A stretch of DNA of 64,000 nt from Promethearchaeota archaeon (GCA_019057795.1 JAHLWS010000078.1:138857-202856); one strand, 5' to 3'; numbered from the stretch's first letter, positions 14,670-52,845 are shown. Notes: generated from the letters alone by a model not told the origin. Numbers and translations: made by a program.

Positions 14670-15272
14670 ATGAAGTCAATGGATTCGAAAGACGCAGAAA
14701 ACGAAACGGAAAAATTAACAAAAGTACTTTCTATTGTTCAAAATCTTTACTATAAGAAGAAGGAACAATTAGACGATTTAAAATTAGAAATCTCTGAATT
14801 ACACATCGTTTTAGATTATTTAAACTCATTGATTTCAAAGCAATCGTTTTCAAGTGCAGATGAAATTTATTCGAAGCTTTTAAATCGTGAAGAGAAAACG
14901 ATTGATGATTATTTTAAAAAAGATATTTCACAGGAAGATTTTAATGGAACTAACATTAAAAGAAAAATTTTCTCGAGCAAAAATCAGAATGAAGAAGATT
15001 TATTATGTGTGCTTAACCTCTACGACTTTAAAAGAGTTGAGATAAAATTTATTGATCCTGAAAAAAGGGAGATACAAGAAACTTCAGAGAATTTTATTAA
15101 CATTTTTCTCAAGGGGGCACTTATTAAAATAAAAGAAAATAACCCTAATTTGAGCATTAATTACAATTTTTTCAAAAATTCCGATAAAGTTGAATATATT
15201 CACATATCTAATTTAAGTTCAATTGAAGACTATGATTTGATAACGGACAAAATCCGCGAATTATTATATTAA
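14670..15272 (+). CDS. hypothetical protein (host gene of cassette 1)
   Basis: 200-aa ORF; its last ~26 codons recur in diverged form at 18466-18561. Confidence 0.75.
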   Translation: MKSMDSKDAENETEKLTKVLSIVQNLYYKKKEQLDDLKLEISELHIVLDYLNSLISKQSFSSADEIYSKLLNREEKTIDDYFKKDISQEDFNGTNIKRKIFSSKNQNEEDLLCVLNLYDFKRVEIKFIDPEKREIQETSENFINIFLKGALIKIKENNPNLSINYNFFKNSDKVEYIHISNLSSIEDYDLITDKIRELLY

Positions 15273-15315
15273 GATATTATATTGATTAATTAAAATACAA
15301 AGAATTAATTATACA
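15262..15315 (+). repeat. direct repeat, left copy (matches 18604-18654 and 18664-18698)
   Basis: 15262-15312 equals 18604-18654 with 2 mismatches in 51 bp; 15281-15315 (ATTGATTAATTAAAATACAAAGAATTAATTATACA) is identical to 18664-18698. Confidence 0.9.
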
Positions 15316-15340
15316 AATTTTCATCATTGAATCTTTTTTT

Positions 15341-15398
15341 TTTGTTCTTTATAAATAACTGTGATAATTGTCTAGTAAATAATTTAAAACAATAAATT
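15341..15398 (+). promoter_or_regulatory. conserved cassette leader/promoter (TATA-like box + CTxTxATAATT + TAGTAAA + AATAAATT-ATG)
   Basis: Same blocks lie upstream of all three ~203-aa ORFs (also 48634-48691 and reverse strand 34721-34772). Confidence 0.7.
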
Positions 15399-16013
15399 AT
15401 GACGGACAATATTGAAGAACATTATATTGAATCAGAATATGAAGAAATTTTTAATGATTGGTATGAAATTGAGGGCGCAAGAAAAATAAAAGAACTTTCA
15501 CGCCAACTCCGAACTTTTTTCAATTACAAGACAGAATTAATAAGATATCGATTTCGATCCAGTCCAAATCTTGCCGAAAATTATACAAATAATAAATTTT
15601 TTGCTCAAAAACAAAAGATTGAATCATTATCTGATGAATTTATAACCCTTTTAAAAAAAATTAAGAAACATAGACAATCCCTTGAACAAGTAATTCGTTC
15701 TCTATTTTTTAATAATAATAAAACAGTATTAAACAAACTTTCAGAAATCACAGAGAAGTTGTCCATTCTACTCCACTATTTCTCAGAGGAATGCATTCAT
15801 GATCATCCAAGATTCCTCAAATTCATCGTTGTATTAGCACAAAACATTTGTTTGGTGAAAATGTGCTTGTATGCTGAATTCAGCGAATTTTATGGGGAAC
15901 TTGAAGTTAACTACAATGGTTTAAATGGAGAAATGGAGATAATATTAGAAGAAACGCTAGGAGATAAAATTAAAAAAACAAAAAATCAACTTGAGGAGAG
16001 ATTGAGGATATGA
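15399..16013 (+). CDS. cassette ORF A (conserved ~203-aa helical protein, unknown function)
   Basis: IFNDWYEIEG.RKIKELSRQLRTFFNY shared with 34112-34720 and 48692-49303; ATGA overlap with next gene. Confidence 0.85.
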   Translation: MTDNIEEHYIESEYEEIFNDWYEIEGARKIKELSRQLRTFFNYKTELIRYRFRSSPNLAENYTNNKFFAQKQKIESLSDEFITLLKKIKKHRQSLEQVIRSLFFNNNKTVLNKLSEITEKLSILLHYFSEECIHDHPRFLKFIVVLAQNICLVKMCLYAEFSEFYGELEVNYNGLNGEMEIILEETLGDKIKKTKNQLEERLRI

Positions 16014-18427
16014 AGGCATACACAAATGTATCACGGAAAACAGTGGAAGAGGATCGAGTAGCAGTCTGCCCAAATTTTGGGTGTGAGTTTATGACACGAG
16101 TTAAACCACTTAAGTTAAAGTTCTTAGGTTTTAGTAAGCATCCTAAATGCAAGAAACATCACATCCCTTTAGTTTACATAGATGAAAGGATCGGGGATTT
16201 CGTGGATGCTGCATTAGTATGCTTGTTTGATAAAGCAGGACTCCCACCACGTGAATTACTCGAGGGAGTAAAATCAAAATTCCCCAATGAAATTACCTCG
16301 TTTATAGAAGGATGGGTGTATAGCATCACGGTTGGAAGGGGAGCTCCCATTGTATCACGTTACATGGATGCCGTTTCGAATGCATATCTCAAGCAATTAA
16401 CCAAAAAACAGATAAAATCATTGAAAAAAGGAAATAATTCAAAACCAAATCTCGTGAAAAAAGCAATTAAGGATGGTCTGGATGAAATTGCACTTCAATA
16501 TACAAGACTACTTAAGCATCTTAGAGCCCATTCCGAGATCCTCATTGATCATCAAAGACTTAAATCACTTTCAAGAAGTCTCCAAAATTATTTGAATGAT
16601 TGGCATAAGGATATTTTAAAGTATAATGAAATCATAATTTTCTCAGAAAATAAGCAAGAAATGACTTTAAAAGATATCAAGTGCAAATATGATCAAATTC
16701 TTAATGTTGGCACCTGTCGATGCCTTCTTGGATTAAATCCAGAAAGTAAAAAAATTAAGAAAACAAAATTAACTGCGTTTGATCGGTTTTCCGCTTATAT
16801 AGAATTTTTTTCTGAAAGTATTACTGAAAAATTTACTAAGTCCGATATTAAAGGACTTAACTCAGATATTAATCCAATTAAAAAGTCAATAAAAAAAATG
16901 AAATCGTACGATAATTTTGAAAGTGGTAATAGTCAAAAGATTAAGGAATATTTAAAAAATCTTGATTGGGAGAATTTAACTAACAATTGGACATTATTAC
17001 ATAGAGAACATCATACACATCCTTACAAGGAAATTCTGCTTGATCCTCATAAAGATCCTTCCAATGAAAATCCTTTATGGAAACACGAAATTTGGTTGAA
17101 GCGAGTTTATGCTGATGAAAATTATAATTTTTCAGATAGTCTTATTTCTCGAATCACTGGTATTGCTCGCGACACAGTCAGAAAATACCGTAGGAAATTT
17201 AATATTAGCAATGGCTACTACAACACGACTCAAAAACCAAAACTTAGTAAAGAATTGATTGAGAAAAGGGAGAAAATTCGCAATTTTAATTGGAACATTA
17301 ATATTGATTGGATGATACCCGTCGGGATTCATGGAGATTTGTCAATTCTTAACCCAAACAAATATTGTAGTTTTGATAATCCTTTATACAAGCATAAGCT
17401 ATGGTTAAAAAGAGTCTACGAAGATGAAGAGCTTGATTTGAATGGAGTTGAGATTGCCAAAATATGCAGTCTTAAAGATCAGAAACCTATTAGTTATTGG
17501 AGAAAAAGATTAGGGATACCTAAAAAAAGAAAAGGTATTTTTCTAAATAAGTCAGGACATAAGTTGGTTCTCACTCCAAATTCCTATATACACCCTCAGC
17601 GTGGTAGACTCTATCAACGTGCTGAACATACACTAATCATGGAAAGATATTTAAATAAAAATCTATCAAGACGCCAATTAGCAACACATCCGGATTTGAT
17701 TCAGGGATGGTTAGGAGAAGAGGAGTATTTTTATATAAAAAAAGATTGTCATGTTCACCATATCAATTTTGTAGGTTTAGATAATAGAATCGAGAATCTT
17801 TGGTTATTTTCAAGTAATCGCGCACATGGATTAGTGGTTAATGAGCTACATCAATGCCTTTCAATTTTGATTAAGTTACATCAAATATTTTTTAAAGAGG
17901 GCATGTATTTTCTAAATGAAGATTTTGATTGTCTTCAGTTAGAAAGAGATGATATTCGGAGTAAGTTAAATCTTAATATTGTAATAAACCACTCTCTCTC
18001 TCGATTTTATGATAAGCGAAGAAATTCTTTTAGTGTAGCGATGTCTGCCTCCTATAACAATCCCTTTATTTCTCCAAAAAAAGGAATTGATTATGTTTAT
18101 ATGTATGAACATAGATATATCATCGAGCAATATTTTAGGACGCTTTTAAGAAAAGAGACTATATTACTAGAGGAGCACATTGATTATCAAAAAGCTCAAG
18201 AATTCATAAATCCACAAGGGTTTTTAAAACCCGATGCTATCGTGCACCATGTAAATTTCGATTCTCGAGATAATCGGTTATTAAATTTATATGTGTGTGA
18301 AATTTCTGAACATAGGCTTGTTCATGGATTAATTTACCAATTAGTCGAAAGATTACTTGATATGGGATTGATATATTTCAGTAATGGGAAATATTTTTTG
18401 GATAACACTTTGACTAATAAAATGTGA
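16010..18427 (+). CDS. cassette ORF B: conserved 280-aa N-domain + two HTH-like repeats + two HNH nuclease domains
   Basis: MKAYTNVSRKTV...CPNFGC...CKKHH N-domain; HVHHINFVGLDNRIENL and IVHHVNFDSRDNRLLNL HNH motifs, each preceded by EH.L/Y.IxE. Confidence 0.85.
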   Translation: MKAYTNVSRKTVEEDRVAVCPNFGCEFMTRVKPLKLKFLGFSKHPKCKKHHIPLVYIDERIGDFVDAALVCLFDKAGLPPRELLEGVKSKFPNEITSFIEGWVYSITVGRGAPIVSRYMDAVSNAYLKQLTKKQIKSLKKGNNSKPNLVKKAIKDGLDEIALQYTRLLKHLRAHSEILIDHQRLKSLSRSLQNYLNDWHKDILKYNEIIIFSENKQEMTLKDIKCKYDQILNVGTCRCLLGLNPESKKIKKTKLTAFDRFSAYIEFFSESITEKFTKSDIKGLNSDINPIKKSIKKMKSYDNFESGNSQKIKEYLKNLDWENLTNNWTLLHREHHTHPYKEILLDPHKDPSNENPLWKHEIWLKRVYADENYNFSDSLISRITGIARDTVRKYRRKFNISNGYYNTTQKPKLSKELIEKREKIRNFNWNINIDWMIPVGIHGDLSILNPNKYCSFDNPLYKHKLWLKRVYEDEELDLNGVEIAKICSLKDQKPISYWRKRLGIPKKRKGIFLNKSGHKLVLTPNSYIHPQRGRLYQRAEHTLIMERYLNKNLSRRQLATHPDLIQGWLGEEEYFYIKKDCHVHHINFVGLDNRIENLWLFSSNRAHGLVVNELHQCLSILIKLHQIFFKEGMYFLNEDFDCLQLERDDIRSKLNLNIVINHSLSRFYDKRRNSFSVAMSASYNNPFISPKKGIDYVYMYEHRYIIEQYFRTLLRKETILLEEHIDYQKAQEFINPQGFLKPDAIVHHVNFDSRDNRLLNLYVCEISEHRLVHGLIYQLVERLLDMGLIYFSNGKYFLDNTLTNKM

Positions 18428-18465
18428 TTTCTTATTTCTATCATCACATTGGATTAATATTTTAA

Positions 18466-18561
18466 TTAATCGAATACAATACTATTTCTAATTTAAGCGC
18501 TATCGAAGATTACGATTTAATAACCGCATAAATACGAGAATTATTAACTCGTGAGATGTAA
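18466..18561 (+). pseudogene. orphan diverged 3' end of the 14670-15272 gene
   Basis: LIEYNTISNLSAIEDYDLITA*IRELLTREM* vs KVEYIHISNLSSIEDYDLITDKIRELLY* (20/26 identical); no start, one in-frame stop. Confidence 0.85.
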
Positions 18562-18603
18562 TCCATCTATAAAATGCGGATTAGATAAAGTTTGAATAGT
18601 ATG

Positions 18604-18698
18604 TATTATATAAAGATATTATATTGATTCATTAAAATACAAAGAATTAATTATTTAAATTTAATTGATTAATTAAAATACAAAGAATTAATTATACA
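18604..18698 (+). repeat. direct repeats, right copies (tandem), including TTATATAAA TATA-like box upstream of 18743
   Basis: See 15262-15315. Confidence 0.85.
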
Positions 18699-18742
18699 GA
18701 GTTTTATATTATTTTTAATTAAAAATTTGGAGCGTATGAACA

Positions 18743-19558: not shown

Positions 19559-19559
19559 A

Positions 19560-20192
19560 ATGGTGAATATTGGGCTTTTGGGTGATATCTCTGTCGGAAA
19601 AACTAGTATTCTCCGTTTATTCGTAAGATATTTAAAAGTTGGTGACATAGAAAAAGTTAAGGGGGGACAAAAATGTACAGTAATAAAAGCAGATTTTTCA
19701 GGAGAGGCAACAGTGCCGGGAGGAGATAAAGAAGATAAACTTAATCAAAAAGAAACGAAAACAATCCATCCAAATAGGATTGTTTTTAGAGAAGATAAAT
19801 CGGGAAAAGCACATACAATCTTCGCACCAGGAGGAGATCGGAAACGAAGTGTAATTCGAATGGGAATTATAACGATATCCCGAATCGCAACCCAGATAAT
19901 AGCGATCTTTTCGTGCGATAGAGATGTAAAAACTCAATTTGAATTTTTCAACGATGTTCGATTTTTCCCAGATAAAATTAATCTTTGTATAAATAAAGTA
20001 GATTTACTTAAAGGCGATAAAAAGAATAAACTAGAGAAATTGGAAACAGAAATTATAGATTTTTTTAAGACAAGAAAAATACAAATAGTAGAGACCTTTA
20101 TAACATGTGGTGAAAGTGTGGAAGGGTTTGAGGATGTCCAGATTTATAACGACCGCGTCGTAGAGATGATCCTAAGAATTATTACTCAATAA
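19560..20192 (+). CDS. small GTPase (Ras-like superfamily, MglA-like G3)
   Basis: G1 GDISVGKT, G2 Thr in ETKTI, G3 region FAPGG, G4 NKVD, G5 TCG. Confidence 0.85.
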   Translation: MVNIGLLGDISVGKTSILRLFVRYLKVGDIEKVKGGQKCTVIKADFSGEATVPGGDKEDKLNQKETKTIHPNRIVFREDKSGKAHTIFAPGGDRKRSVIRMGIITISRIATQIIAIFSCDRDVKTQFEFFNDVRFFPDKINLCINKVDLLKGDKKNKLEKLETEIIDFFKTRKIQIVETFITCGESVEGFEDVQIYNDRVVEMILRIITQ

Positions 20193-20314
20193 CCAGTTTA
20201 AGTGGCATGGTAGAATCTCTGATCTTTTTCTGGAATTTGCGGGACTCTTCTTCGATTTTTCATTGTTCTCTGATTCTTCTGGAAATGGGGGCTAAAACCC
20301 CGAAATTTTTCTTT

Positions 20315-22708
20315 TTACTCTTCATAATTTAAATAATATTTACCCTTCTTGAAAGAGAGTAAACCAGATTGTATTAGCGGGCTAACGGTGTCTAATAAGC
20401 TCGCATGTACAGAATTGTGCCCCTTATGTTCTTCACAAACCCATAAGTTTTTTAATCGATTATCTAGGGTAACAAGGTTGATATGATGAACTTTATATTC
20501 TGATTTTAAGAATTTTCCATCAAGAAGGCTATTTTGAGAGATCCCCAATTCAAGATGTTTCGCTAAATAGTTTTCTATTACATAGCGATGTTCAAGCATT
20601 ATATTTTGTCTACTGAGCTTTATTGCGAATGGGTTTTTGTAATCATTTGGTATTTTTCTCCATATACGATCACCAGCGCTCTCGCTTCTCTTAATGGTGC
20701 GAATATTTCCCCATCGTTCATAATAAGTTGGAATTTTATGATGATTCCATCTCCATTTATATGCTGTGGACTCTGAAATGCCGCATACTTTCGCGAGCCG
20801 TGGATCTGTCAAGTTATATTGTTTTTCTCTGACGATGGTTTCCATCCAAAACTTATTTCTATAAAGTGGATTTTCTTTTGAGCAGTCCTTGTAGGGATCA
20901 ACTGTCATACTAACTTGTCCATATTGATTAGAATTTTTCCACACATTCCAATCGTTAGGGACATGATCCCAATCGAGTGTTTTTATTTGGTGTTTTATTT
21001 CTTTTATACTCATATCACCTTTAAATTCAGCAGGCTTAATTATTTCCTTAATTTCTGAGAGATCTAGCGTTTTATAATCGAATTTGTAGTTTACATTGTA
21101 TTTTCCCTCATTAAATTGGATTTGACTAAGTTTATATAAGCAACTAAAGCAATCATTTAAGCTTCTCTGAGCACCACTATGTTCAGATTTAGTTTCATAA
21201 AGCCAAAGGTTTTCTAATCTATTGTCATTAGGAATGTGGTTGATGTGATGAACTTCACATTCACTTTTTAAATATTTTCCATCGATAAGATATTTTTTGG
21301 ATATGTCCGATTCAGGATTTTCTTTTAAATAATTTTCCATTACCACATCATGTTCTTTTCGCCTTATTCTTCCTGATGAGTTTTGTGTTAATTCAGGATG
21401 ACGGTAATCCTTTGGCATATATAATTCTACATATCCCTTATCATTAATATACCGTCCTATTTCTGCTTTAGTTGGTATATCCAACTTTTTTCGCCAATTA
21501 CCGATGGTTTTATGACTTAGGTTGTAAAGTTCGCCGATTTTTCGATCACTTAAATCTAATCTATCATCATTATAAATACGATTAAGCCATTTTTCGCTTT
21601 TATATAAAGGATTTTTTTTAGAGCAGTCTTGTGTTGGATCAAGATTAATAGGATTTCCAGTTCTTCGGTCGATGATGGTCCAATCGGGAAATTCTTCAAC
21701 CCACTCTAAGTTTTTAATGTATTCTTTTATCCGTTCTTTCCCATCAATTGCTTTCTCTTCGGTGATATTATCACTCAAATCTTGGGAAATATCACTATTC
21801 TCTAAATTATCATTTCTGAAGTTGTCATTTACATTATCAAATTCCTTATTGAAATTTTCATCATCAAGATTTACTTCAAAATCTTTTAACCAATCTAAAT
21901 CATCAATCTCATTATTTTCAGAATTTTTATCATAATCTTTTAACCAACTTAAGTCATCAAAATCTAAACTTTCTTCTTTACCACGGATTTCCACAATTTT
22001 ATCATCTTTTAGGCTCTCTTCGAATTTATTGCCCATTTCATGATTATTTGTTCCGTCTTCAATCCATTCTGCGAATTCTTTATGAATTCTATTTTGTTCC
22101 TCTAATGTATCTTCTAGATCTTCTAAAAAATCCTTATTTGTATCATTTTCCTTGAATTCACTATCAACCTCTTTTGAATCATCTAAACCTTCATCAAATC
22201 CATCTTCAAACATCCTATTATCATCTATATCTTTGTTTTTATAATCCTCTAATTCTTTAGCAGGAAATTTGTTGAGGATTGTCTGTAATTCTAATTTTTC
22301 CACCTCTGTTAAATTTTCAATCTGAGTCAGTTTAATGATTTTTGATTTTTCACTTAATTCCATTTGGTCATTTTTATACAAATTATCTCTTAAATATTCA
22401 TTAAAATTAAACATATTAGCATTATCTTCATTTAATATTACCTCTATTATCTCTTCTTTTTTAAACTCCATAGAATCTTCTTGGTGAATTCCTCTGGGAA
22501 TATCAATTTTAGATTCTTGGTTAGGATCATTTTGATCAATTTCTTTGAGTTTTTCCTCAATTTTTTCATTTGGATTCCATTTTTCATTTAAACTGACTTC
22601 TATTTCCTGATTTGTTTCTAAATCATTATTATCATTCTTAATTTCATCCTTTTCTTTTTTAATTTCGCGAACACCATAATTATTCCAATCACTACCAAAT
22701 TCGTTCAA
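20315..22708 (-). CDS. acidic low-complexity N-terminus + two (HTH-like/HNH nuclease) units
   Basis: EVHHINHIPNDNRLENLWL and KVHHINLVTLDNRLKNLWV; L.W...DP..DCSK.NPLY..W repeat shared with 16010-18427. Confidence 0.85.
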   Translation of the reverse strand: MNEFGSDWNNYGVREIKKEKDEIKNDNNDLETNQEIEVSLNEKWNPNEKIEEKLKEIDQNDPNQESKIDIPRGIHQEDSMEFKKEEIIEVILNEDNANMFNFNEYLRDNLYKNDQMELSEKSKIIKLTQIENLTEVEKLELQTILNKFPAKELEDYKNKDIDDNRMFEDGFDEGLDDSKEVDSEFKENDTNKDFLEDLEDTLEEQNRIHKEFAEWIEDGTNNHEMGNKFEESLKDDKIVEIRGKEESLDFDDLSWLKDYDKNSENNEIDDLDWLKDFEVNLDDENFNKEFDNVNDNFRNDNLENSDISQDLSDNITEEKAIDGKERIKEYIKNLEWVEEFPDWTIIDRRTGNPINLDPTQDCSKKNPLYKSEKWLNRIYNDDRLDLSDRKIGELYNLSHKTIGNWRKKLDIPTKAEIGRYINDKGYVELYMPKDYRHPELTQNSSGRIRRKEHDVVMENYLKENPESDISKKYLIDGKYLKSECEVHHINHIPNDNRLENLWLYETKSEHSGAQRSLNDCFSCLYKLSQIQFNEGKYNVNYKFDYKTLDLSEIKEIIKPAEFKGDMSIKEIKHQIKTLDWDHVPNDWNVWKNSNQYGQVSMTVDPYKDCSKENPLYRNKFWMETIVREKQYNLTDPRLAKVCGISESTAYKWRWNHHKIPTYYERWGNIRTIKRSESAGDRIWRKIPNDYKNPFAIKLSRQNIMLEHRYVIENYLAKHLELGISQNSLLDGKFLKSEYKVHHINLVTLDNRLKNLWVCEEHKGHNSVHASLLDTVSPLIQSGLLSFKKGKYYLNYEE

Positions 22709-22824
22709 AAGAGAGTCACATTTACCTTTTTTAGGTTCTTAATACAAAATATTTTTAACATATTTAAAAAAAAAATTAGAAAGAATTAATTAAAATTATA
22801 AATCAGAATTTAGATCAGATTAAA

Positions 22825-23130
22825 ACTCAGATTATAGCTGTATTTTCTTTGGATCGTAAACTTGAAAGACAATTTGAATTTTTCAACGATGTCCGCTTTT
22901 TTCCTGATCATATACATGTGTGCATCAATAAGATTGATTTACTTGAGGGAGACAGAGATAAAGGTTTAGAAGATATTAAAAGCAAGATTACTAACTTCTT
23001 CAAACAAAGAAAAATAACGGTTTCTGACTATTTTATAACTTGCGGTGAAACTGTGTCCAATTTTGAAGAGGTTGAGGAATACAACAACCATGTTGCCGAG
23101 ATGATTTTAGAGATAACAATACCTCGTTAA
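22825..23130 (+). pseudogene. orphan diverged 3' half of the small GTPase (19890-20192)
   Basis: TQIIAVFSLDRKLERQFEFFNDVRFFPDHIHVCINKIDLL vs TQIIAIFSCDRDVKTQFEFFNDVRFFPDKINLCINKVDLL; lacks G1-G3. Confidence 0.9.
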
Positions 23131-23154
23131 AGCAATAAATTTATGATTTTTCTC

Positions 23155-23670: not shown

Positions 23671-23682
23671 TTTTTTTTAACC

Positions 23683-30264: not shown

Positions 30265-30330
30265 TAAATCGATAAATATAAATCTATAACATTTTAAGGT
30301 TTCTTTACGCTCAAATCGACAACCTTAAAT
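30265..30330. promoter_or_regulatory. arsR/acr3 divergent promoter with putative ArsR operator; duplicated at 34826-34891
   Basis: Imperfect palindrome ATCGATAAATATAAATCTAT; 24-bp and 20-bp blocks recur identically 4561 bp downstream. Confidence 0.7.
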
Positions 30331-30387
30331 TTGAAGTACAACTTTTATCAAATAATAATTATTCAATCTTAAAGGAATTAAGTAAAA

Positions 30388-31474
30388 ATGAAATCAGAAG
30401 AACCAAAAGAAGAATCAAAAAAAATTAGTTATTTTGAAAAACTTCTTCCGTTATGGGTCGCATTATGTATAATAGCGGGCATTATTCTTTCTCAGCTCAT
30501 CCCTGAAATAAGCGAAGCTATTAATTCTTTACAAATAGGAGGAATTTCTATTCCCATTGGAATCTGCTTATTCCTGATGATGTATCCCGCTATGTTGAAT
30601 CTTCAATTTTCTGAGTTGAAAAAATTAGGTAAAAACCCAAAACCAATTATATTAACGCTTATATCTAATTGGGTCGTTGCTCCTTTCGTAGGGTTAGCAA
30701 TGGCAAACATTTTTTTACCTGGATATGAACAGTTAATAGTTGCAATCATTCTTCTAAGTTCAAGCCCATGTACTGCTATGGTCCTAATCTGGGGCTGGAT
30801 GGCAAGAGGGAATCAAGAACAAAATGTAATTAATACTAGTTTAAATACGATAACTATCATAATCGGTTATGTCCCTTTAGTCGCATTATTAACAGGCATT
30901 AAAAATATTCCTATAGATATCTTTCTTTTGTTGATTTCTTTGGTGTTTTTTATAGGAGTACCATTATTATTGGGTATAGTTAGTAAAAAAATTATTATTT
31001 CAATAAAAGGAGATGCTTGGTTTAACGATGTCTATAGACCAATTGTAGGAAAAGTTTCGATTGTAGCACTATTAACGACTTTAATTGTTCTTTTTTCCCT
31101 AAATGGAACTGTCTTGATAAATAATCCTGATCTGTTGCTCTTAATTTCTATACCTCTTTTAGTGGGATTTGTAATTGTTGTTAGTTTTAATATATTAATT
31201 ACAAAACTCTTTAAGTTGAGATATGAGGAAGCTGTTATTACGGTTATAATAGGGTCTTCAAGTCATTTTGAAATAGCTATTGCTACTGCGATTGCTATGT
31301 ATGGGATTGGCTCTATTGCGGCATTAGGAACTACCATGGGACTATACGATTCTTAGTTTTACTATGAACGGGTCATTCTGGGAAGTTCCTGTGATGCTAT
31401 CGATTGTATATTTGGGAGGATACTTAGGAAAACGAGGATTTTGGGAGAGTTCAAAGAGTAGGATTGAGAAATAA
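30388..31474 (+). CDS. acr3: Acr3 arsenite efflux transporter, join(30388..31345,31377..31474), 351 aa if spliced
   Basis: MMYP, NWVVAPF, SPCTAMV, SSHFEIAIA; conserved C-terminal EVPVML helix lies beyond a 31-nt insertion containing a stop. Confidence 0.9.
31346..31376 (+). other. putative bulge-helix-bulge (EndA-type) intron in acr3 mRNA
   Basis: 4-bp helix GACT(31340-43)/GGTC(31371-74), 3-nt bulges ATA and ATT, inner hairpin, outer stem AGGAACT/AGTTCCT; canonical cuts give GGA CTA TTC TGG GAA. Confidence 0.85.
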
Positions 31475-31556: not shown

Positions 31557-34115
31557 TTAGATAAATCTTATTATATCACCAAAAGTTTGCCTTAGCTTGT
31601 CGATTTGTTTCAGATCTCTCCAATTACATTTAGGAAGTTTTCTAAGACGATAATTATTCACTTTAAATAATTTCCTTACTTGTTGCTCAAACTCAGAATG
31701 TATGAATTCTACGTAGTTATCTCGTCTTATTGTATGATCTACAATAATATAAATATCAATATATCCACTATTTTTTAGATTTTGTTTAAAATTATCACTA
31801 GATTTTAAATGTTTATAATCGTTGGCATGGGATCCATTTCTAGGAGTTCTATGCCTGAATCTATCAACATATTCTTCTAGTGAAAAATGCTCGCGATCCC
31901 AATATTCCCCTGCAACGCTTAGAGTAAATACATCTTTTCCAATTTTTATATCGACATAAGCAAAAGCATCAAAATGCATGTGTCTATATCTCCGTAATGA
32001 TTTATAATCGCTAGGCAAAATATCAACAACCTGATCAAAAGGAAGAACTTCATATAATGAAGTTGGCCTTTCACCAAAATTCTTATGAAATAATCTTGAA
32101 AGTAAATAGCGCATTATCCTTTCATTCGTTATTTTACCTCCCGAACATATATCACATGATTTTAGATCTAAACTATAATCATCAGGTTTAGATTTAAATT
32201 TAAAACTTGGATGATACTTACAAGACCATAGAAAAACTTCTCTGGTTGGCTGTTTTAACTTCTCAATATGACTCAACGGGGTTTCCAGATTAAAATTAAA
32301 TTTATCACCCCGAGCAATTATTTGTTGGCTCGTTAATCTATGACTTTCATTATAACATTCAGCACACCAATTATTATAAGATCTAATACGTTCCATGCTA
32401 ATGCTAAATTCTCCATGTTTATTACAAATAAATGGGAACAGTATTTCTGAGACCTTTTGTTGTATATTGCGCGGTTTCTTTAATTCTTGATTTATTCGAG
32501 TTTTAAATTCAGTTTTAGTAAATTTAAATCTTGCATTTCTTAATTCCGCTTCTTTAACAAAATCTTGATATGAATGGGACTTTTCAATTCTTGAACATAG
32601 AGGACATTTAGCGCGATATAAATGTTTGTAAGCAACATTAAATTTTTCATGGTTGGAACATTTACAAGAAAGTTCAAATAATAAGTTTTCTATTAGAGTT
32701 CCTGTCAGCACAGTTTCTAAATATTCAAATATTTTCGTCTCCATATTAAGTCCTAAAGTATTGATTCTACTACAATAGGAATTCCATTTCTCAATTAAGC
32801 TAAAAACACGCTTTTCAGCACAAATTAATTTGTAATCAAGTATTAAATTAAAAAAAACAGTATAATTGCTTGGAAATTCTTGTTTCAGATTAAAAAACCA
32901 ATTATCTAAAACTTTTTCATCTATTAAGGAGTTAGGTCTCTTAAATTTATTAGATTTCAAAGTAGCGAAAGCTAAAGCTTCAGAACCATTAGATGTACCA
33001 TATAATTTCTCGGCAATTCTATTATCTGGTAAATCTTCTTGATATAATTTTATTTGTTTCACTAAATTTACAAGAAAATCTTTCGATATGGAACTACTAT
33101 TCTTTATATTTGGAAATTGATTCTTAATAAATTCCTTATAATGCTCTAAAGCTAAAACTTCGATTTTTTTGATTTTTCTTGGTCGATTTTCATTGGTTTG
33201 CTTCATGGAATCAAAACCTTCTTTTTCTTTTGGTTTACAATTTTCTAAATCCACAAATCTTTTTATAAGTTTAATCACATCAGATTTAGTAAATTTCGGA
33301 GTTAGCCCATTAGTATAAAATTCATGATATGCAGAAAATCTATCAAAAGCAGTTACCTTTGATTTCTTAATTTCTTTATTTTCAGGATTTAATCCGAGAA
33401 GGGATCTACACGTACCAATGTTTAGGATTTTATCATAATTACTCTTGATTTCTTTTAAAGTCAGTTCGGTTTTATTTTCTAACGATTTTATTACCTCAAT
33501 GCCCTTTATTATTTCTTTTTGCCATTCTTTCAAGAAATTTCGAAGGTTTTTAGAAAGCGGTTTAAGATTTTCATACTCAGAAAAGATTTTCGAATGAACT
33601 CGAAGGTGCTTAAGTATCCTCTTATATTGGATGGTTATTTCATCCATTCCATGTCTAATTGCCTTATTCACGAGATTTGGTTTAGAACTTTCTCCTTTTT
33701 TTAGTGCTTTAATCTGTTTTTTAGTCAATTGCTTGAGATATGTATTCGAAACCGAGTCCATGTAATATGAAACTATAGGAGCTCCCCTTCCTATTATGAT
33801 ACAATATACCCATCCCTCTATGAACGGGGTAGTTTCATGGGGGAATCTTGATTTTACACCCTCAATTAATTCTTGTGGAGGAAGTCCTGCTTTATCAAAC
33901 AAGCATGCTAACGCAGCATCCACGAAATCACCAATCCTTTCATTAACATAGACTAAAGGAATGTGATGTTTCTTACATTTAGGATACTTCCCAAAACCAA
34001 AAAATCTTAATTTAAGAGGTTTAACTCTAGTCATGAACTCACACCCAAAATTTGGACAGATTGCGACTCGATCTTCTCTCACTGTTTTTCGTGATACATT
34101 GGTGTATGCTTTCAT
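31557..34115 (-). CDS. cassette ORF B: conserved 280-aa N-domain + three zinc-ribbon repeats + PD-(D/E)XK/Vsr-like nuclease domain
   Basis: CSNH...CPLC, CNKH...CAEC, CKYH...CDIC; NERIMRYLL...HFDAF...AGEYW..EH. Confidence 0.8.
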   Translation of the reverse strand: MKAYTNVSRKTVREDRVAICPNFGCEFMTRVKPLKLRFFGFGKYPKCKKHHIPLVYVNERIGDFVDAALACLFDKAGLPPQELIEGVKSRFPHETTPFIEGWVYCIIIGRGAPIVSYYMDSVSNTYLKQLTKKQIKALKKGESSKPNLVNKAIRHGMDEITIQYKRILKHLRVHSKIFSEYENLKPLSKNLRNFLKEWQKEIIKGIEVIKSLENKTELTLKEIKSNYDKILNIGTCRSLLGLNPENKEIKKSKVTAFDRFSAYHEFYTNGLTPKFTKSDVIKLIKRFVDLENCKPKEKEGFDSMKQTNENRPRKIKKIEVLALEHYKEFIKNQFPNIKNSSSISKDFLVNLVKQIKLYQEDLPDNRIAEKLYGTSNGSEALAFATLKSNKFKRPNSLIDEKVLDNWFFNLKQEFPSNYTVFFNLILDYKLICAEKRVFSLIEKWNSYCSRINTLGLNMETKIFEYLETVLTGTLIENLLFELSCKCSNHEKFNVAYKHLYRAKCPLCSRIEKSHSYQDFVKEAELRNARFKFTKTEFKTRINQELKKPRNIQQKVSEILFPFICNKHGEFSISMERIRSYNNWCAECYNESHRLTSQQIIARGDKFNFNLETPLSHIEKLKQPTREVFLWSCKYHPSFKFKSKPDDYSLDLKSCDICSGGKITNERIMRYLLSRLFHKNFGERPTSLYEVLPFDQVVDILPSDYKSLRRYRHMHFDAFAYVDIKIGKDVFTLSVAGEYWDREHFSLEEYVDRFRHRTPRNGSHANDYKHLKSSDNFKQNLKNSGYIDIYIIVDHTIRRDNYVEFIHSEFEQQVRKLFKVNNYRLRKLPKCNWRDLKQIDKLRQTFGDIIRFI

Positions 34116-34720
34116 GAAGTCAATCTCTCCTCGAGTTGTTTTTTTGGATTTCTTATCTTTACTCTTGGTGCTTTTTCTAATAGACTCTCTAATTCTCCTT
34201 CTAAACTATGGTAGTTTATTCTAAGTTCCTCATAAAACTCGCTGAATTGTATATGTAAGCACTTTTTCACTAAACATATGTTTTTTGCCAATACAACTAC
34301 GAATTTGAGTAAGCTTAGATGATCATGAATGTTCTCATCCGAAAAATAGTGAATTAAAATGGATATTTTTTCTGTTATTTCTGAAAGTCTGATTATGGGT
34401 GTTCTATTATTGTTAAAAAATAGAGATCGTATCCCTTCCTCAAGAGTTTGAGTGCTGTTTTTTAATTTCTTAAGCATTGTTATGAATTCATGGGTTAATG
34501 TTTCTAATTCTTGCTTTCGACTGAAAAATTTATTGTTTCTATAATTTTCAGCAAGATGGGGATTGGTCCAAAATCGATATCTTATCACTTCCATCCTATA
34601 ATTAAAAAAAGTTCGGAGTTGACGTGAAAGTTCTTTTATTTTTCTTACACCCTCAATCTCATACCAATCATTAAAAATTTCTTCATAATCAGTTTCAAAA
34701 TCTTCCATATACTCTGTCAT
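34112..34720 (-). CDS. cassette ORF A
   Basis: Paralogue of 15399-16013 and 48692-49303; ATGA overlap with ORF B. Confidence 0.85.
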   Translation of the reverse strand: MTEYMEDFETDYEEIFNDWYEIEGVRKIKELSRQLRTFFNYRMEVIRYRFWTNPHLAENYRNNKFFSRKQELETLTHEFITMLKKLKNSTQTLEEGIRSLFFNNNRTPIIRLSEITEKISILIHYFSDENIHDHLSLLKFVVVLAKNICLVKKCLHIQFSEFYEELRINYHSLEGELESLLEKAPRVKIRNPKKQLEERLTS

Positions 34721-34825
34721 AATTTATTAACATCTTTTACTAACCAATTATCACAGATATATTTAAATAAAAAAGTGAGTTGAGAAAAGCGGACAATGCC
34801 TTTATATAATATCATAATTAGATAA

Positions 34826-34891
34826 TAAATCGATAAATATAAATCTATAGCATTTTAAACTGTGATGTAGGTCAAATCGACAACCTTAAAT
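34826..34891. repeat. second copy of the arsR/acr3 promoter-operator
   Basis: TAAATCGATAAATATAAATCTATA (34826-49 = 30265-88) and TCAAATCGACAACCTTAAAT (34872-91 = 30311-30). Confidence 0.9.
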
Positions 34892-34947
34892 GTGAAATAT
34901 TATACTATATATTGAACCATCATAATATGAAGAGTTAATTCAAAAAT

Positions 34948-35028
34948 TTGATTGAAGTACCTGTGATGTTATCCATAGTTTACTTAGGAAGATATCTTAA
35001 AAAGCGAGGATTTTGGAAATCCAATTGA
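34948..35028 (+). pseudogene. orphan diverged 3' end of acr3
   Basis: LIEVPVMLSIVYLGRYLKKRGFWKSN* vs exon 2 FWEVPVMLSIVYLGGYLGKRGFWES; 19/21 aa identical, 10 synonymous codon differences. Confidence 0.9.
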
Positions 35029-43248: not shown

Positions 43249-43278
43249 TGTTAATAAAATAATATGTAAAATTTTAAT

Positions 43279-44734: not shown

Positions 44735-44745
44735 GGTGATAAAAA

Positions 44746-46092: not shown

Positions 46093-46172
46093 ATTCTTAC
46101 TCATTTTCTTTCAAAAATAAATTAAAATGAAAGGATGTAAAATTAATATAATTAAAATAGAAGGTTTGAAAA

Positions 46173-47858: not shown

Positions 47859-47954
47859 TCTGAGATATTACCCAACTCTTACATTTTATAACTATTTTTA
47901 TTTTAACAATTTATTTTTTAATTAAACCAATTTTTTCATTTCTACTCTTATATT

Positions 47955-48545
47955 ATGAATGTAGACGAAATACTTTCAGCTGTAAGAACTTTCGCATATA
48001 ATAATTCTGAAAATGACGATCTCCATGGTTTTAAACATGTTGAGCGAGTACTTAATTTATGTGTGCAAATAGGGACTGCTTTAAATGCGAATTTATTAGC
48101 AATTAAAATAGCTGCCTTACTTCACGATGTTGGTAGAATTCATGAGAAAAAAAATGCTGCAAAGAATCACGCTGAGTTATCCGCTGAAATGGCTGAAAAA
48201 TTTTTACAAAAAACTAACTTCAATATTAACATTGACGATATTGAAAATATTATTCACAGCATTCGAGCGCATTCTTTTTCGAATAAAATAAAACCTACAA
48301 CTCTTGAAGCAAAAATATTGTCGGACGCAGATAAACTAGACACGCTTGGAGCAATAGGTTTATACAGGACAATTATATATTCATTTAAATTGAAAAATGG
48401 TGGAATAGAGAAAGTAATTGAACATTTAGAAAAAAAAATAATAAAATTAAAAGATCGAATGTATTTAGACATTTCAAAAGAAATAGCAAAAGAAAGACAG
48501 AAAATTATCTTAGATTTTTATTATGAAATAAAAAAGGAAGTGTAA
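47955..48545 (+). CDS. HD-domain phosphohydrolase (host gene of cassette 3)
   Basis: HGFKHVERV, LLHDVG, HAELSA, SDADKLD..GAIG. Confidence 0.9.
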   Translation: MNVDEILSAVRTFAYNNSENDDLHGFKHVERVLNLCVQIGTALNANLLAIKIAALLHDVGRIHEKKNAAKNHAELSAEMAEKFLQKTNFNINIDDIENIIHSIRAHSFSNKIKPTTLEAKILSDADKLDTLGAIGLYRTIIYSFKLKNGGIEKVIEHLEKKIIKLKDRMYLDISKEIAKERQKIILDFYYEIKKEV

Positions 48546-48691
48546 TATCTAAATTTTTATACTTTTTTGAAAACCACCTTCATTTTTCTTTCCTTTCAAG
48601 TCCTATATTCGAACATAAAACTTCTTGTCACAATTTGTTCTTTAAATATAACTATCATAATTAGGTAGTAAAAGAATTATGATAATAAATT

Positions 48692-49303
48692 ATGACAAAC
48701 TATATTGAAGATTCTTATATTGGATCAGAATATGATGATATTTTTAATGATTGGTATGAAATTGAGGGCGCAAGAAAAATAAAGGAACTTTCACGCCAAC
48801 TCCGAACTTTTTTCAATTATAAGGCTGAAGTAATAAGATATCGATTTCGACCCAGTCCGAATCTTGCCGAAAATGATACAAACACTAAATATTACAGTCG
48901 AAAGCAAGAAACTGAATCATTAACTCGTGAATTCATAATCTTGTTAAAAAAGCTTAAGAAAAATGGACAAACACTTGAGCAAGGGATTCAATCTCTCTTT
49001 ATTTTCAATGATAAAGCACATTTTAATAAACTTTCAGCCATAACTGAGAAATTATCCATGTTACTTCACTATTTTTCAGAAGAAAGCCTTTACATTCATC
49101 CTAAATTTCTCAAATTTAGCGTGACATTAGCACAACACCTTTGTTTAGTGAAAAAATGCTTGAATGCGCAATTTAGCGAATTTTTTGAGGAACTTGAAAT
49201 AAATTACAACAATTTAGAAGAAGAACTTGAAGACTTAATCGAAATCACGCCAATTAAGAAGCAAAAATTAAAAAAGCAACTTGAGGAGAGATTAACTTCA
49301 TGA
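48692..49303 (+). CDS. cassette ORF A
   Basis: Paralogue of 15399-16013 and 34112-34720; ATGA overlap with ORF B. Confidence 0.85.
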   Translation: MTNYIEDSYIGSEYDDIFNDWYEIEGARKIKELSRQLRTFFNYKAEVIRYRFRPSPNLAENDTNTKYYSRKQETESLTREFIILLKKLKKNGQTLEQGIQSLFIFNDKAHFNKLSAITEKLSMLLHYFSEESLYIHPKFLKFSVTLAQHLCLVKKCLNAQFSEFFEELEINYNNLEEELEDLIEITPIKKQKLKKQLEERLTS

Positions 49304-52300
49304 AAGCATACACAAACGTATCACGGAAAACCGTGGGAGAGGATCGAGTAGCAATCTGCCCTAATTTTGGATGCGAGTACATGACACGAGTTAAGCCTCT
49401 TAAATTTAAGTTCTTAGGTTTTGGGAAGCATCCTAAATGCAAGAAACATCACATTCCTTTAGTATTTGTTGATGAAAGAATCGTTGATTTCGTGGATGCT
49501 GCCCTAGCGTGCTTGTTTGATAAAGCAGGACTCCCCCCAAGTGAATTACTCGAGGGTGTAAAATCAAAATTTCATAATGAAGTTACCTCGCTTGTAGAAG
49601 GATGGGTGTATTGCATCACGGCTGGAAGGTGTGTGTCCATTATTTCACGTTACATGGATACGATTTCTAATGCGTATCTCAAGCAATTAACTAAGAAACA
49701 AATTAAGGCACTTAAAAAGGGAGATGATTCAAAACCAAATCTCGTGAATAAGACGATTAAGGGTGGAATTGATGAAATTACTATTCAATATACGAGGATT
49801 CTCAAGCACCTGAGAGCTCATTCCGAGATTCTCATTGATCATCAAACGCTTAAATCACTTTCTAAAAACCTCCGAAATTATTTGAAGGATTATCAAAAGA
49901 CCATATTAAAGCGCAATGAGATCATTAATTCTCCAGAAAATAAGCGCGAAATGAGTTTAAAAGAAATCAAGAGTAATTATGATCAAATCCTAAACGTTGG
50001 GACATGCCGTTGTCTTCTTGGATTGAATCCCGAAAGTAAAGGAATCAAGAAAGCAAAAATAACTTCATTTGATAGATTTTCTGCTTATCTTGAATTTTTT
50101 AGTGAAGGATTAACTGGAAAATTTACAAAATCCGCAATCTGTGATTTAGTAAAAACTAAGTTCACTTATCAAGATAATATTGATATACTTGATGAGACAA
50201 AATATAAAATACCCTTTCAAAATCAAAAACCTAAAAGTATCATGACAGTTAAATGCACTCAAGAAGAACTTCTAGGCAAAATTTTTAAGTTCGGGGAATC
50301 TCTACAATTAGGAATTTTAACGATATATTATATTTGTGATATATTTCCAAAAAAGAATGAAATTGATAAGTTATTTTTTTCTGGAAAGGAATTAAGTCAG
50401 ATTCTTAGCAGATCAGAATATTTTTTTAATAATATTAGAAGGGAACTGTTAGACGAAAATTTTGTTCAATACTGCGGAACAATTTCTAAAAAAAAACATA
50501 GCTTTGTAAAAATTTATACAATTACAAAACAAGGCGCAGATTTTGCAGCGGAAATTATTGAGTCAAAAATACAAGAATTTTCTAATCTTTTTAATGATTT
50601 AACCCTCAGATTAGAACAGCGATATAAAGAATTAATGTCCTCAGAAAATAACATTGTTATTCGTTCAATAGAAGAAATCAACAATGATTTAAAAAAAAAA
50701 GCTGAAGAAAACAATGCTAAAATGCTCACTACATACAAATCTGATGAAAATAAAATAATTTTTAGATGTAAGGGATGCAATAAAGAATTTAAAGATATAT
50801 ACAAGAATATGAAAAGAAGACAAGAACCAAAAATAGCTTGCCCTTTCTGTTTTCCAGAATTAAGACCTAACACTTATATTCCTGAAGAATTAAGAGAAAA
50901 AATAGCAAAATATGTTTTAGTTGAATTAAGACAAATTACTATTTACAATTTAGTAGAAAAGGAAATTTTAGAAAATATAGTTTCTATAAGAGATTCTGTT
51001 TTCAGACAAATAGAAATCAAAAAGGTTCCGATTTTAGACAATAGAATTCAAGCTGATGCCGATTTTAGACAATATATTAAGAATTATATTCAACTTATCG
51101 TTAAGCTTCTTATAAAAATAAAATTATTAAATGAGACCAAACAAAAAATAAATATTACTGAAGTAGCAAAAGAAACTTATGATAAAAATATAGTTTCCTT
51201 AAAATCTTGGGTGGTTTTTTCAACGAAGATTATTCAGTATTTAAGACAAAATCTTGATTTTAATATTAGATCACGTTATCATGATACATTCCAAAAATCT
51301 ACTCAAGTATCGATTAGGAATTTTAGGAATTTGTATAAATTAATTGATGATATTACAATTACTTATTTGAAAAAAGATTTACAGATGAAAATAGATATTC
51401 ATTACAATGGAATATGTCAAGGAAATAATGGAACTTGTCAATTCAATATTGATTACAGATTCTTACCTGCTCTCTCCCATCACCATCTACTCAAAAGTTA
51501 CAAAAAACTCATAACAAGAAAAGAATTTAAATATATCCTTCCTCATACTATTCTAAACTTAAAATTTGAGAGAGCTATTAAATTAATGCAGACTCAAATT
51601 GGTGGATTAGGTTTAGCATGTCTGAATTGCCATTTTTCTAAACATCATGTAATATATAATTTTTCACCGATTTTTACATTTCTTCAGAAACTATCCTTAG
51701 AAAATATCAATGAAAATCCATTAGATGTTTTAATCAAATTGAAGTCATTAGTAAGCATATATTACAACCAAAAAAAAGAAAAAACTAAAATGTCTAAAAA
51801 TTACACTCAAGCTCAACAAAAAACAATGATAAAAGATGGTATTAGAAAATCGACTTTAGCATTCGTTAAAAAAAAATATAGTATTCAGTTTCTATTTGGA
51901 AATGATTATGTTTGTCCTATTTGTCGAAAAGCTAATATTAATGAACACCTCAATTGTTTTGTTGCTCATCATACTAATGAAGATATTTTTAGAGATGATC
52001 TTGAGAAAATAGAATTTGGTAAAGAATATAAAAAAAAGGATATTGATTGGTTAATTGAAAATCTAATTATTCAAGAATGTGTGTTTATTTGTATAAATTG
52101 TCATCAAATGCTTCATGCTGTAAATTTTCGAGATTATGCTCTTACTATCTTGGAAAGTAAAACCGATGAGATATTTGTAAGGAATTATTATAGTCAATTA
52201 GACAAACAGATAAGTAAATTAAAAAATAGAATCTTAATTTTAAAAAAAAAAATTGAAAATCATTTGATTCAAATTCCAAATCCGTTACAGTTAATTTTTG

Positions 52301-52668
52301 AAAAGGGAGACGGTTTAAAGAGAAATTTAATATGTATTTACTATATTTGTGAAATTTTTTCAAAAGATAAAGAGAATCCTTTCTTTACTTCTGGTGAGTT
52401 GAATTTTATTATTAATAAGGTGCGTTCATTTAGGAATTTTAAACATAAATTAATTCATCTTGATTATATACAAGCTGTTGAGAATTTTCAAAGAATTTAT
52501 CATATTACTCCTAAAGGTAAGGAAAAAGCAAGAGAATTGATTAATCAAAAATTAAATGATTTTCCGAAAAGATTCAGAGATTTAATTGATATTTGGGAAA
52601 ATAATTACGTAAAATATCAGCTAAAGATGAAACAAAATAAGTATTTTTTTGGAAAAGAAATTTTATAA
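49300..52668 (+). CDS. cassette ORF B: conserved 280-aa N-domain + two winged-helix-like repeats, zinc ribbon and two Cys-rich HNH-like domains
   Basis: IYYIC.IF...FF...EL...Y.IT..G twice; CKGC...CPFC; C..C...HH...CLNCH...H and CPIC...AHH...CINCHQMLH. Confidence 0.8.
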   Translation: MKAYTNVSRKTVGEDRVAICPNFGCEYMTRVKPLKFKFLGFGKHPKCKKHHIPLVFVDERIVDFVDAALACLFDKAGLPPSELLEGVKSKFHNEVTSLVEGWVYCITAGRCVSIISRYMDTISNAYLKQLTKKQIKALKKGDDSKPNLVNKTIKGGIDEITIQYTRILKHLRAHSEILIDHQTLKSLSKNLRNYLKDYQKTILKRNEIINSPENKREMSLKEIKSNYDQILNVGTCRCLLGLNPESKGIKKAKITSFDRFSAYLEFFSEGLTGKFTKSAICDLVKTKFTYQDNIDILDETKYKIPFQNQKPKSIMTVKCTQEELLGKIFKFGESLQLGILTIYYICDIFPKKNEIDKLFFSGKELSQILSRSEYFFNNIRRELLDENFVQYCGTISKKKHSFVKIYTITKQGADFAAEIIESKIQEFSNLFNDLTLRLEQRYKELMSSENNIVIRSIEEINNDLKKKAEENNAKMLTTYKSDENKIIFRCKGCNKEFKDIYKNMKRRQEPKIACPFCFPELRPNTYIPEELREKIAKYVLVELRQITIYNLVEKEILENIVSIRDSVFRQIEIKKVPILDNRIQADADFRQYIKNYIQLIVKLLIKIKLLNETKQKINITEVAKETYDKNIVSLKSWVVFSTKIIQYLRQNLDFNIRSRYHDTFQKSTQVSIRNFRNLYKLIDDITITYLKKDLQMKIDIHYNGICQGNNGTCQFNIDYRFLPALSHHHLLKSYKKLITRKEFKYILPHTILNLKFERAIKLMQTQIGGLGLACLNCHFSKHHVIYNFSPIFTFLQKLSLENINENPLDVLIKLKSLVSIYYNQKKEKTKMSKNYTQAQQKTMIKDGIRKSTLAFVKKKYSIQFLFGNDYVCPICRKANINEHLNCFVAHHTNEDIFRDDLEKIEFGKEYKKKDIDWLIENLIIQECVFICINCHQMLHAVNFRDYALTILESKTDEIFVRNYYSQLDKQISKLKNRILILKKKIENHLIQIPNPLQLIFEKGDGLKRNLICIYYICEIFSKDKENPFFTSGELNFIINKVRSFRNFKHKLIHLDYIQAVENFQRIYHITPKGKEKARELINQKLNDFPKRFRDLIDIWENNYVKYQLKMKQNKYFFGKEIL

Positions 52669-52674
52669 GACTAT

Positions 52675-52845
52675 GGATTTACCATTAGAAATAAAGGGGG
52701 AATCGAACAAGTAATTAACCATTTGGAAAATAAAATCTTGAAATTAAAGGATGGATTGTATTTAGAAGTCTCTAAACAAATCGCAGAAGAGAGAAGTAAA
52801 ATAATTATAGACTTTTATAACAAAATAAGAGAAGAAATAATGTAG
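52675..52845 (+). pseudogene. orphan diverged 3' end of the HD-domain gene
   Basis: GFTIRNKGGIEQVINHLENKILKLKDGLYLEVSKQIAEERSKIIIDFYNKIREEIM* vs GGIEKVIEHLEKKIIKLKDRMYLDISKEIAKERQKIILDFYYEIKKEV* (31/47 identical). Confidence 0.9.

Follow-up and report, generated by a model that had tools for sequence, protein, structure and literature searches.

Probable homing-nuclease cassettes within host-gene ends of a Loki-type Asgard archaeon

In a Loki-type Asgard archaeon, the ends of ordinary genes are occupied by selfish nuclease cassettes that form one family. Four of these cassettes lie in a 64,000-nt stretch of a draft genome (4.95 Mb, 31% GC) of a Promethearchaeota archaeon (GCA_019057795.1, JAHLWS010000078.1:138857-202856; G000:C78:138857-202856 in the notation used here), referred to below as the window. 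At each insert, a working host gene on one side and a diverged duplicate of its 3' end on the other are confirmed. The inserts are probably free-standing homing-endonuclease cassettes, propagated through repair of a DNA break and equipped with a replacement end for the host gene. They span 2.4-4.3 kb, occur in either orientation, and encode proteins whose homologs are annotated by the sources merely as hypothetical proteins of Promethearchaeota/Lokiarchaeota. The four inserts are:

Insert A, 15341-18427, plus strand: 204-aa and 805-aa proteins.
Insert B, 20315-22708, minus strand: a lone 797-aa protein.
Insert C, 31557-34777, minus strand: 202-aa and 852-aa proteins.
Insert D, 48631-52668, plus strand: 203-aa and 1122-aa proteins.

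A 1.5-kb 5' module (A, 15341-16852; C, 33270-34777; D, 48631-50134) is common to inserts A, C and D; it is 78-81% identical in nucleotide (nt) sequence and comprises the small gene and the first ~285 codons of the large gene, here termed the N-domain. The 3' parts of the three large genes are unrelated.

All four inserts are flanked by direct repeats of the host-gene 3' end, as detected by comparison of the window with itself and by searches of one flank against the other. The blastn scores of the flank repeats are 55-100 bits, two to four times the best null score (~27 bits, random window segments). The repeats, with the divergence of the two copies at synonymous (pS) and nonsynonymous (pN) sites, are:

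Repeat A, 15189-15324 against 18468-18546 plus 18604-18707: coding part 73-78% and intergenic part 87-93% identical; copy pair 73% nt identity, pS 0.89, pN 0.11.
Repeat B, 19887-20189 against 22822-23124: 101 codons, 63% nt and 58% aa identity; pS 0.84, pN 0.26.
Repeat C, 31382-31450 against 34954-35022: 72-81% nt identity; copy pair 72%, pS 0.77, pN 0.13.
Repeat C, promoter region, 30265-30338 against 34826-34899: 84% nt identity.
Repeat D, 48393-48542 against 52690-52839: 74% nt identity; pS 0.62, pN 0.18.

Synonymous sites are near saturation (pS 0.62-0.89) and pN is 0.11-0.26, which gives a pN/pS of 0.12-0.31 for the copy pairs of the four loci. Thus, both copies diverged under coding constraint and are not fresh target-site duplications. 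The original prediction, made from the window sequence, is upheld on this point, as well as in its claims that a remnant is present at four of four loci, that the inserts occur in both orientations (A and D on the plus strand, B and C on the minus strand) and that the junctions have no common motif, as no core sequence is common to them. It had named strain-chimeric assembly as an outcome that would refute it; this is excluded, as independently assembled genomes again show junctions A, C and D, and both D junctions are bridged by metagenome contigs from three other studies.

The native and foreign copies are distinguished by use of matching neighborhoods from up to 20 genomes of the genus. Filled, empty and scarred sites are all seen in natural genomes and metagenomes and, by these comparisons, cassettes are present or absent at a precise site among close relatives. 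With empty-site relatives as reference, the native copy is identified at loci A, B and D. Locus D is an HD-domain gene, with the following features:

Host gene D, 47955..48545, plus strand: HD-domain protein; native to ~48376, foreign from 48377 to the stop.
Cassette D small protein, 48692..49303, plus strand: 203 aa.
Cassette D large protein, 49300..52668, plus strand: 1122 aa; N-domain and an extended variable region bearing two HNH-like His/Cys motifs.
Orphan D, 52672..52842, plus strand: native HD-gene 3' end, which starts a few bases from the stop of the large gene.

Cassette D is present in G000, G020 and G042 and absent from G051, G050 and G005. Orphan D is 93.5%, 85% and 90% identical to the intact HD genes of G051, G050 and G005, respectively, and the working HD end is ~72% identical to the same genes. 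Among the three carriers, the working end is 99-100% identical, compared to just 92% for the adjoining upstream gene sequence. The whole cassette is likewise 98-100% identical between carriers with flanks of ~92-96%; as cassette identity exceeds flank identity, cassette D and its recoded end appear to have spread recently. The empty allele is found on contigs of three metagenomes (three studies), which join 48375/6 to 52687 with 10-11 native bases between, and the same metagenome runs hold other contigs that bridge both filled junctions. The cassette-free HD gene of G005 is chimeric, with ~59 nt of the foreign type after the junction followed by native sequence, as expected of the scar left by cassette loss through recombination between the two copies. 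No donor of the foreign HD end is identified among 154 genomes of the order: outside the cassette bearers, no match exceeds 83% identity, and the best (80-82%) are HD genes of other genera. A few metatranscriptome contigs of one dataset map to the D large gene and may represent DNA carry-over. In a further genome (G052; L079, G052:C252, 5545-7500), a full HD gene is accompanied ~1 kb downstream by a second partial copy (aa 70-193), and long open reading frames are lacking in the interval. The arrangement may reflect an earlier insertion into the HD gene that had a different left boundary and has since decayed.

At locus B, the host is a small GTPase gene and the cassette is a solo gene in the opposite orientation:

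Host gene B, 19560..20192, plus strand: small GTPase; native to ~19844, foreign (nearest G008) from ~19848 to the stop.
Cassette B, 20315..22708, minus strand: solo 797-aa HNH/helix-turn-helix protein, acidic at its N-terminus and lacking both the N-domain and a small partner.
Orphan B, 22824..23130, plus strand: native GTPase 3' end, ~101 codons, open to its own stop.

The four closest relatives are without an insert at this site. Over the 306 duplicated bases, orphan B is 87-92% identical to the intact GTPase genes of those relatives (91-92% for G020 and G042), a value equal to that of the upstream part of the gene. The working GTPase end is 62-66% identical to the insert-free relatives and has its nearest match in G008 (81%). 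Based on informative sites, the switch from native to foreign sequence occurs at nt 285-289 of the GTPase gene and the orphan starts near nt 330; the conversion tract extends at least 41 nt upstream of the orphan start. A Campbell-type single crossover was considered for locus B and is rejected, as the orphan starts downstream of the switch point. In G012, a decayed 88-aa piece of the B nuclease occupies the same site. The B site of this genome (L061, G012:C32, 7757-11548) also has a pair of further large genes (454 aa and 806 aa) beside the decayed fragment and may collect unrelated cargo as well.

The order of foreign C-terminus, insert and native C-terminus is found at B and D by sequence comparison. 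Local tandem duplication with neutral decay of one copy, or strain-chimeric assembly, could be invoked on the basis that orphan A has a stop codon and orphan C is mostly deleted. However, at B and D it is the orphan that matches relatives (~92-94%) and the working copy that is divergent, the pN/pS values reflect constraint on both copies, and the same junctions are present in independent genomes and metagenomes. The probability of this explanation is close to negligible, and simple local duplication with neutral decay, an outcome that the original prediction had set against itself, is contradicted.

The same anatomy of gene, replacement end, insert and native end is that of att-site restoration, and the two D boundaries coincide within ~15 nt. 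The inserts could, thus, be small integrative elements in which the two-protein module acts as a site-specific recombinase of an undescribed kind, with attL and attR represented by the two copies of the gene end; the invariant Arg, Lys, His and Tyr residues of the conserved module would suit such a role. By contrast, no integrase or transposase family of Pfam, NCBIfam or PHROGs is detected and the element holds just the cassette genes. Both conserved proteins are helical bundles that have no recombinase fold match, and a tyrosine-recombinase-like residue pattern considered for the N-domain was dropped for this reason. The junctions share no core, the inserts lie in both orientations, and the switch point at B is offset by at least 41 nt. 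Cassette B, which is without the two-protein module, gives the same insertion signature, and the module is thus dispensable for this signature; the C-terminal nuclease module of cassette B is 40-43% identical to the modules of N-domain proteins. An integrative element is, therefore, very unlikely. As the B conversion tract reaches upstream of the junction, repair is favored over an att or Campbell crossover. Of the two models offered by the original prediction, intronless homing fits these data and an integrase att site does not.

Locus C, the acr3 gene, differs in structure:

Host gene C, acr3, 30388..31474, plus strand: exon 1, 30388-31343; insert, 31344-31374; exon 2, 31375-31474, a variable, element-linked segment.
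Cassette C large protein, 31557..34115, minus strand: 852 aa; N-domain, three Cys4 units resembling zinc ribbons, and a conserved C-terminal domain without family match.
Cassette C small protein, 34112..34720, minus strand: 202 aa.
Orphan C, 34826..35028, plus strand: copy of the ars promoter/operator (34826-34899) and acr3 3' end (34954-35028), with the remaining gene copy deleted.

Cassette C is carried by G000, G042 and G005, and every close relative has it; in ~8 relatives, acr3 is followed directly by the next gene with no cassette. Comparison of G000 with G042 shows 92-98% identity as far as the junction, followed by a fall to 71-77% in exon 2, 52-91% in the cassette and 29-58% in the orphan region. 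As this fall, from 94% to 71-77%, occurs exactly at the junction, exon 2 appears to travel with the cassette, and the drop fits a foreign end. A 31-nt insert lies within ~10 nt of the cassette junction, and its removal restores the acr3 frame to yield a 351-aa Acr3. This insert is found in the cassette bearers in which functional acr3 was examined (G000 and G042), is absent from ~8 cassette-free relatives, and may disrupt the nuclease target. The claim of an intact acr3 followed by a 3'-end remnant, thus, stands in part: the 3' end is duplicated, but acr3 is intact only if the 31 nt are removed, and the orphan is more than a 3' end. G042 and G005 keep the promoter copy alone of orphan C, and G005 also has a decayed piece of the divergent upstream gene; because these remain, the original duplication would have spanned at least the promoter and the whole gene. 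The promoter copy includes two AAATCGA(T/C)AA boxes and is upstream of a methyltransferase-corrinoid gene (35050) that, in relatives, comes immediately after acr3. G000, G042 and G005 all retain this copy, which probably re-establishes regulated transcription beyond the inverted cassette C.

Locus A, a gene for a hypothetical protein, has the reverse polarity:

Host gene A, 14670..15272, plus strand: 200-aa hypothetical protein with native-type 3' end.
Left copy of repeat A, 15189..15324, plus strand: working 3' end and downstream intergenic unit.
Cassette A small protein, 15399..16013, plus strand: 204 aa, all-helical partner subunit.
Cassette A large protein, 16010..18427, plus strand: 805 aa; N-domain (aa 1-285), then helix-turn-helix units and two HNH domains.
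Orphan A, 18468..18707, plus strand: foreign (G008/G056)-type host 3' end (18468-18546) and two tandem intergenic units (18604-18707).

Host gene A is present in every neighborhood of the adjacent core gene that was fetched in the genus, and G020 is without cassettes A and B. Global alignment of the flanks is uninformative at this locus, and alignments with empty-site relatives are required. In these, the last 74 nt of the working end are 98.6% identical to G020 and 77% identical to G008, like the rest of the gene. Orphan A, which has an in-frame TAA, is 92% and 90.5% identical to G008 and G056, compared to just 77-79% for the gene body. As the orphan is near G008/G056 despite the distant gene body, it is donor DNA brought in together with the cassette. 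At the right junction, a ~40-nt intergenic unit is repeated in tandem, first as the foreign type and then as the native type. The left junctions differ between G000 and G042, and G050 keeps the entire native spacer after orphan A. The structure can be explained by co-conversion of the donor flank and orphan, by an untidy join or by a return transfer. The claim that an incoming foreign 3' end displaced the native one is, thus, borne out directly at B and D, agrees with C, and is opposite in polarity at A. In a relative (G015; L062, G015:C212, 8435-10079), the block of a 271-aa gene and the GTPase gene is inverted compared to G000, and a short piece of the A nuclease is at its edge; an inversion of this kind would result if the A and B nuclease genes, which lie in opposite orientations, recombined with each other.

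The cassette proteins appear to include homing-family endonucleases. Pfam HNH_3 (I-HmuI-type) with helix-turn-helix units is detected in A and B, not in C or D, and N-domain relatives have LAGLIDADG_3, PDDEXK_5 and HNH_3 domains. The evidence for a nuclease in D is two His/Cys HNH-like motifs identified by eye and one weak PHROG match, and family and profile searches find no recognizable nuclease domain in cassette C. The description of all four as nuclease inserts, thus, holds for A and B, is weak for D and is not matched at C. The N-domain occurs in at least 195 protein clusters and the small protein in at least 216. Fusion partners of the N-domain include HNH_3, LAGLIDADG_3, PDDEXK_5, RNase_T, treble-clef zinc fingers and winged-helix arrays. 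At site A, identity between G000 and G042 is 56-80% in the 5' module, 83-92% in the 3' module and 95-99% in the flanks. As the 5' module differs far more than the flanks between these close relatives, it was likely exchanged between cassettes, and such exchange appears to occur within genomes.

The small and large genes overlap by 4 nt, and the small protein is predicted to bind the N-domain. AlphaFold models the N-domain (pLDDT 83) as a zinc ribbon (C20, C25, C47 and H50) followed by about eleven helices, and the small protein (pLDDT 81.5) as a helical bundle. The modeled complex of the two has an ipSAE of 0.78 (best control, 0.01), with agreement of three runs in at least 91% of contacts and a partner pLDDT of at least 76. 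In the calibration of the tool, 58 of 80 solved complexes attain this ipSAE mark, as do 2 of 110 mismatched pairs; the counts are approximate here as own alignments were used. The small protein, the N-domain and the C-type tail have no match in Pfam, NCBIfam, PADLOC or PHROGs, and their profiles detect nothing credible among solved structures. Structural searches with the models of the N-domain and small protein return helical background: the best Foldseek E-value is 0.32, and VIA-align gives a best Z of 5.9 for the N-domain (54 residues, root-mean-square deviation 2.4 Å) and 8.8 for the small protein (107 aligned, 3.4 Å). ESM Atlas feature search scores are at most 0.80. The two-protein core is read here as an accessory chassis that is common to many different nuclease modules.

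A conserved N-terminus, highly variable nuclease C-termini and a small upstream partner are also features of polymorphic nuclease toxins, in which a conserved delivery domain bears variable toxic tips. The large gene is, however, not followed by an immunity gene; no reading frame separates it from the host orphan, and a host orphan or the next core gene starts within 40-320 nt. The orphans are pieces of unrelated host genes instead of toxin tips, and no secretion or export domain family is detected. A toxin system is, thus, highly improbable.

The genome has three further, divergent cassettes (C78:122325-125821, C54:8577-11374 and C41:15371-18948) and some fragments. The first of these, a fifth cassette besides the four of the window, is ~13 kb before the window start, and five of the seven genome cassettes are in ~70 kb. 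A flank repeat is not detected at the three other cassettes and, among 17 cassettes of relatives with usable flanks, a clear repeat is found in the D orthologue only, with two borderline cases. The original prediction that every insertion has a remnant, therefore, applies to the window alone and fails for the family, as most of its cassettes have no detected flank duplication. The small-protein family is patchy, with matches in 12 of 24 sampled genomes of the genus (up to 9 per genome), and searches of other families of the order give no match. The C-terminal modules are linked to genomic site: cassette pairs with modules at least 72% identical share a site in 9 of 9 cases, compared to 0 of 14 for pairs with modules 25-38% identical.

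This link bears on whether the cassettes move themselves. They could instead be cargo, such as a defense or conflict system, that is swapped passively by recombination between homologous flanks and leaves duplicated ends as by-products of illegitimate joining. A sensor-like conserved module with exchangeable nuclease effectors resembles many defense systems, and the divergence of the 5' module at site A relative to its flanks, the lack of duplication at most insertions and the clustering of the genome cassettes are all in line with cargo. Yet each module is tied to one site, and LAGLIDADG modules and sequence-reading helix-turn-helix arrays are typical of homing enzymes and not of defense effectors. 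One weak match aside, nothing is detected among PADLOC models. Moreover, the junctions are within conserved coding sequence and the insert starts exactly with the recoded end. Passive cargo is, thus, considered unlikely.

Spread by homing is proposed to proceed as follows. The variable C-terminal module of the large protein, with its DNA-binding units and nuclease, would recognize one conserved coding sequence near the 3' end of the host gene and cut the cassette-free allele. The break would be repaired from a cassette-bearing copy, such that both the cassette and the recoded 3' end of the donor are copied; the gene would still work and the target site would be gone, as the recoded end at the start of the insert removes one half of the presumed target. 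The 3' end of the recipient would be left downstream as the orphan and, in later rounds, could serve as the right-hand homology arm by which the whole structure is copied as one unit. Cassettes would later be lost by recombination between the two copies or by decay.

Several observations weigh against homing with a replacement end. Locus A has a native working end and a foreign orphan and needs a second, less tidy event. Locus C appears to have started as a duplication of at least the promoter and whole gene, not of a 3' end. Most family cassettes show no flank duplication and, thus, terminus replacement is one outcome and not the rule. Cassette C has no recognizable nuclease domain and that of D is weak, and the two-protein module, which is without known fold or role, could be the real actor. 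Each nuclease variant seems tied to one target site, although shared sites partly reflect descent, as the relatives are not independent. The target sites, the cutting, the immunity of the recoded end and the repair pathway are predictions from sequence.

Parts of this organization are known from other mobile elements. Phage 21 and e14 integrate into icd and carry a replacement 3' end. Similarly, the host genes here are kept working by a diverged, element-borne end with the native end at the far junction; by contrast, the cassettes have no integrase and no shared core, are 2.4-4.3 kb, and have nuclease genes in place of a phage genome. The free-standing endonucleases of T-even phages (seg and mob genes) spread by intronless homing. 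They resemble the cassettes, as proposed to act here, in that a free nuclease gene resides beside its target, break repair co-converts flanking markers and donor alleles resist cutting. To our knowledge, the flank is replaced cleanly in the T-even phage cases with no orphan copy left, whereas the displaced end is kept here. In collaborative homing, a free-standing endonuclease reportedly targets the insertion site of an intron that lacks an open reading frame (Bonocora and Shub 2009; Zeng et al. 2009; both cited by PMC6279837). The putative 31-nt tRNA-type insert, ~10 nt from the acr3 cassette junction and seen only in cassette-bearing genomes, is reminiscent of this arrangement; unlike a group I intron, it is putatively of the archaeal bulge-helix-bulge type.

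The closest likeness is to the mobile endonuclease open reading frames (mORFs) of fungal mitochondria, which make 'gene hybrids' of atp6, atp9, cox2 and nad3 in Glomus sp., with atp6 of Allomyces macrogynus cited as a further case (PMC3630166). In Endoconidiophora, partial C-terminal duplications of cob and atp6 occur beside endonuclease genes (PMC6279837). As in the archaeal loci, the order is host-gene core, inserted foreign C-terminus, endonuclease gene and native C-terminus, and the same native/foreign test is published (PMC3630166): close relatives resemble the native end and not the inserted one, and presence or absence differs among them. Unlike the mORFs, the hosts here are chromosomal genes of an Asgard archaeon, and the cassette forms an independent unit of two genes, oriented either way, instead of a reading frame in phase with the host gene. 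The nuclease is also fused to a novel conserved domain and accompanied by a partner protein. Polarity is reversed at one of the loci, and another involves a whole gene with its promoter. No report of end-replacing cassettes in archaea, or of this cassette family, was found in the searched literature on homing endonucleases and Lokiarchaeota. What is new is, thus, the Asgard archaeal chromosomal setting and the carrier, a Lokiarchaeial two-protein family with interchangeable nuclease modules.

A homing nuclease can live in coding sequence by means of a self-splicing intron or an intein. Bringing a spare gene end is a third route, described in fungal mitochondria and here in Asgard archaeal chromosomes. 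The large Lokiarchaeial family defined by its two-subunit core, which is without known fold, is a possible source of new sequence-specific nucleases and a possible marker of gene flow between uncultivated lineages. As the gene ends beside the cassettes are foreign, they can mislead phylogenies and strain typing. A broader and tentative possibility is that Lokiarchaeia harbor a large undescribed class of selfish elements, in which the chassis mobilizes almost any nuclease or DNA-reading module and enters genes by a spare gene end and not by splicing, with the cassettes and archaeal mRNA introns possibly cooperating. If so, the pairing of a cassette with a tRNA-type mini-intron at the acr3 junction would represent a route for such introns into protein genes.

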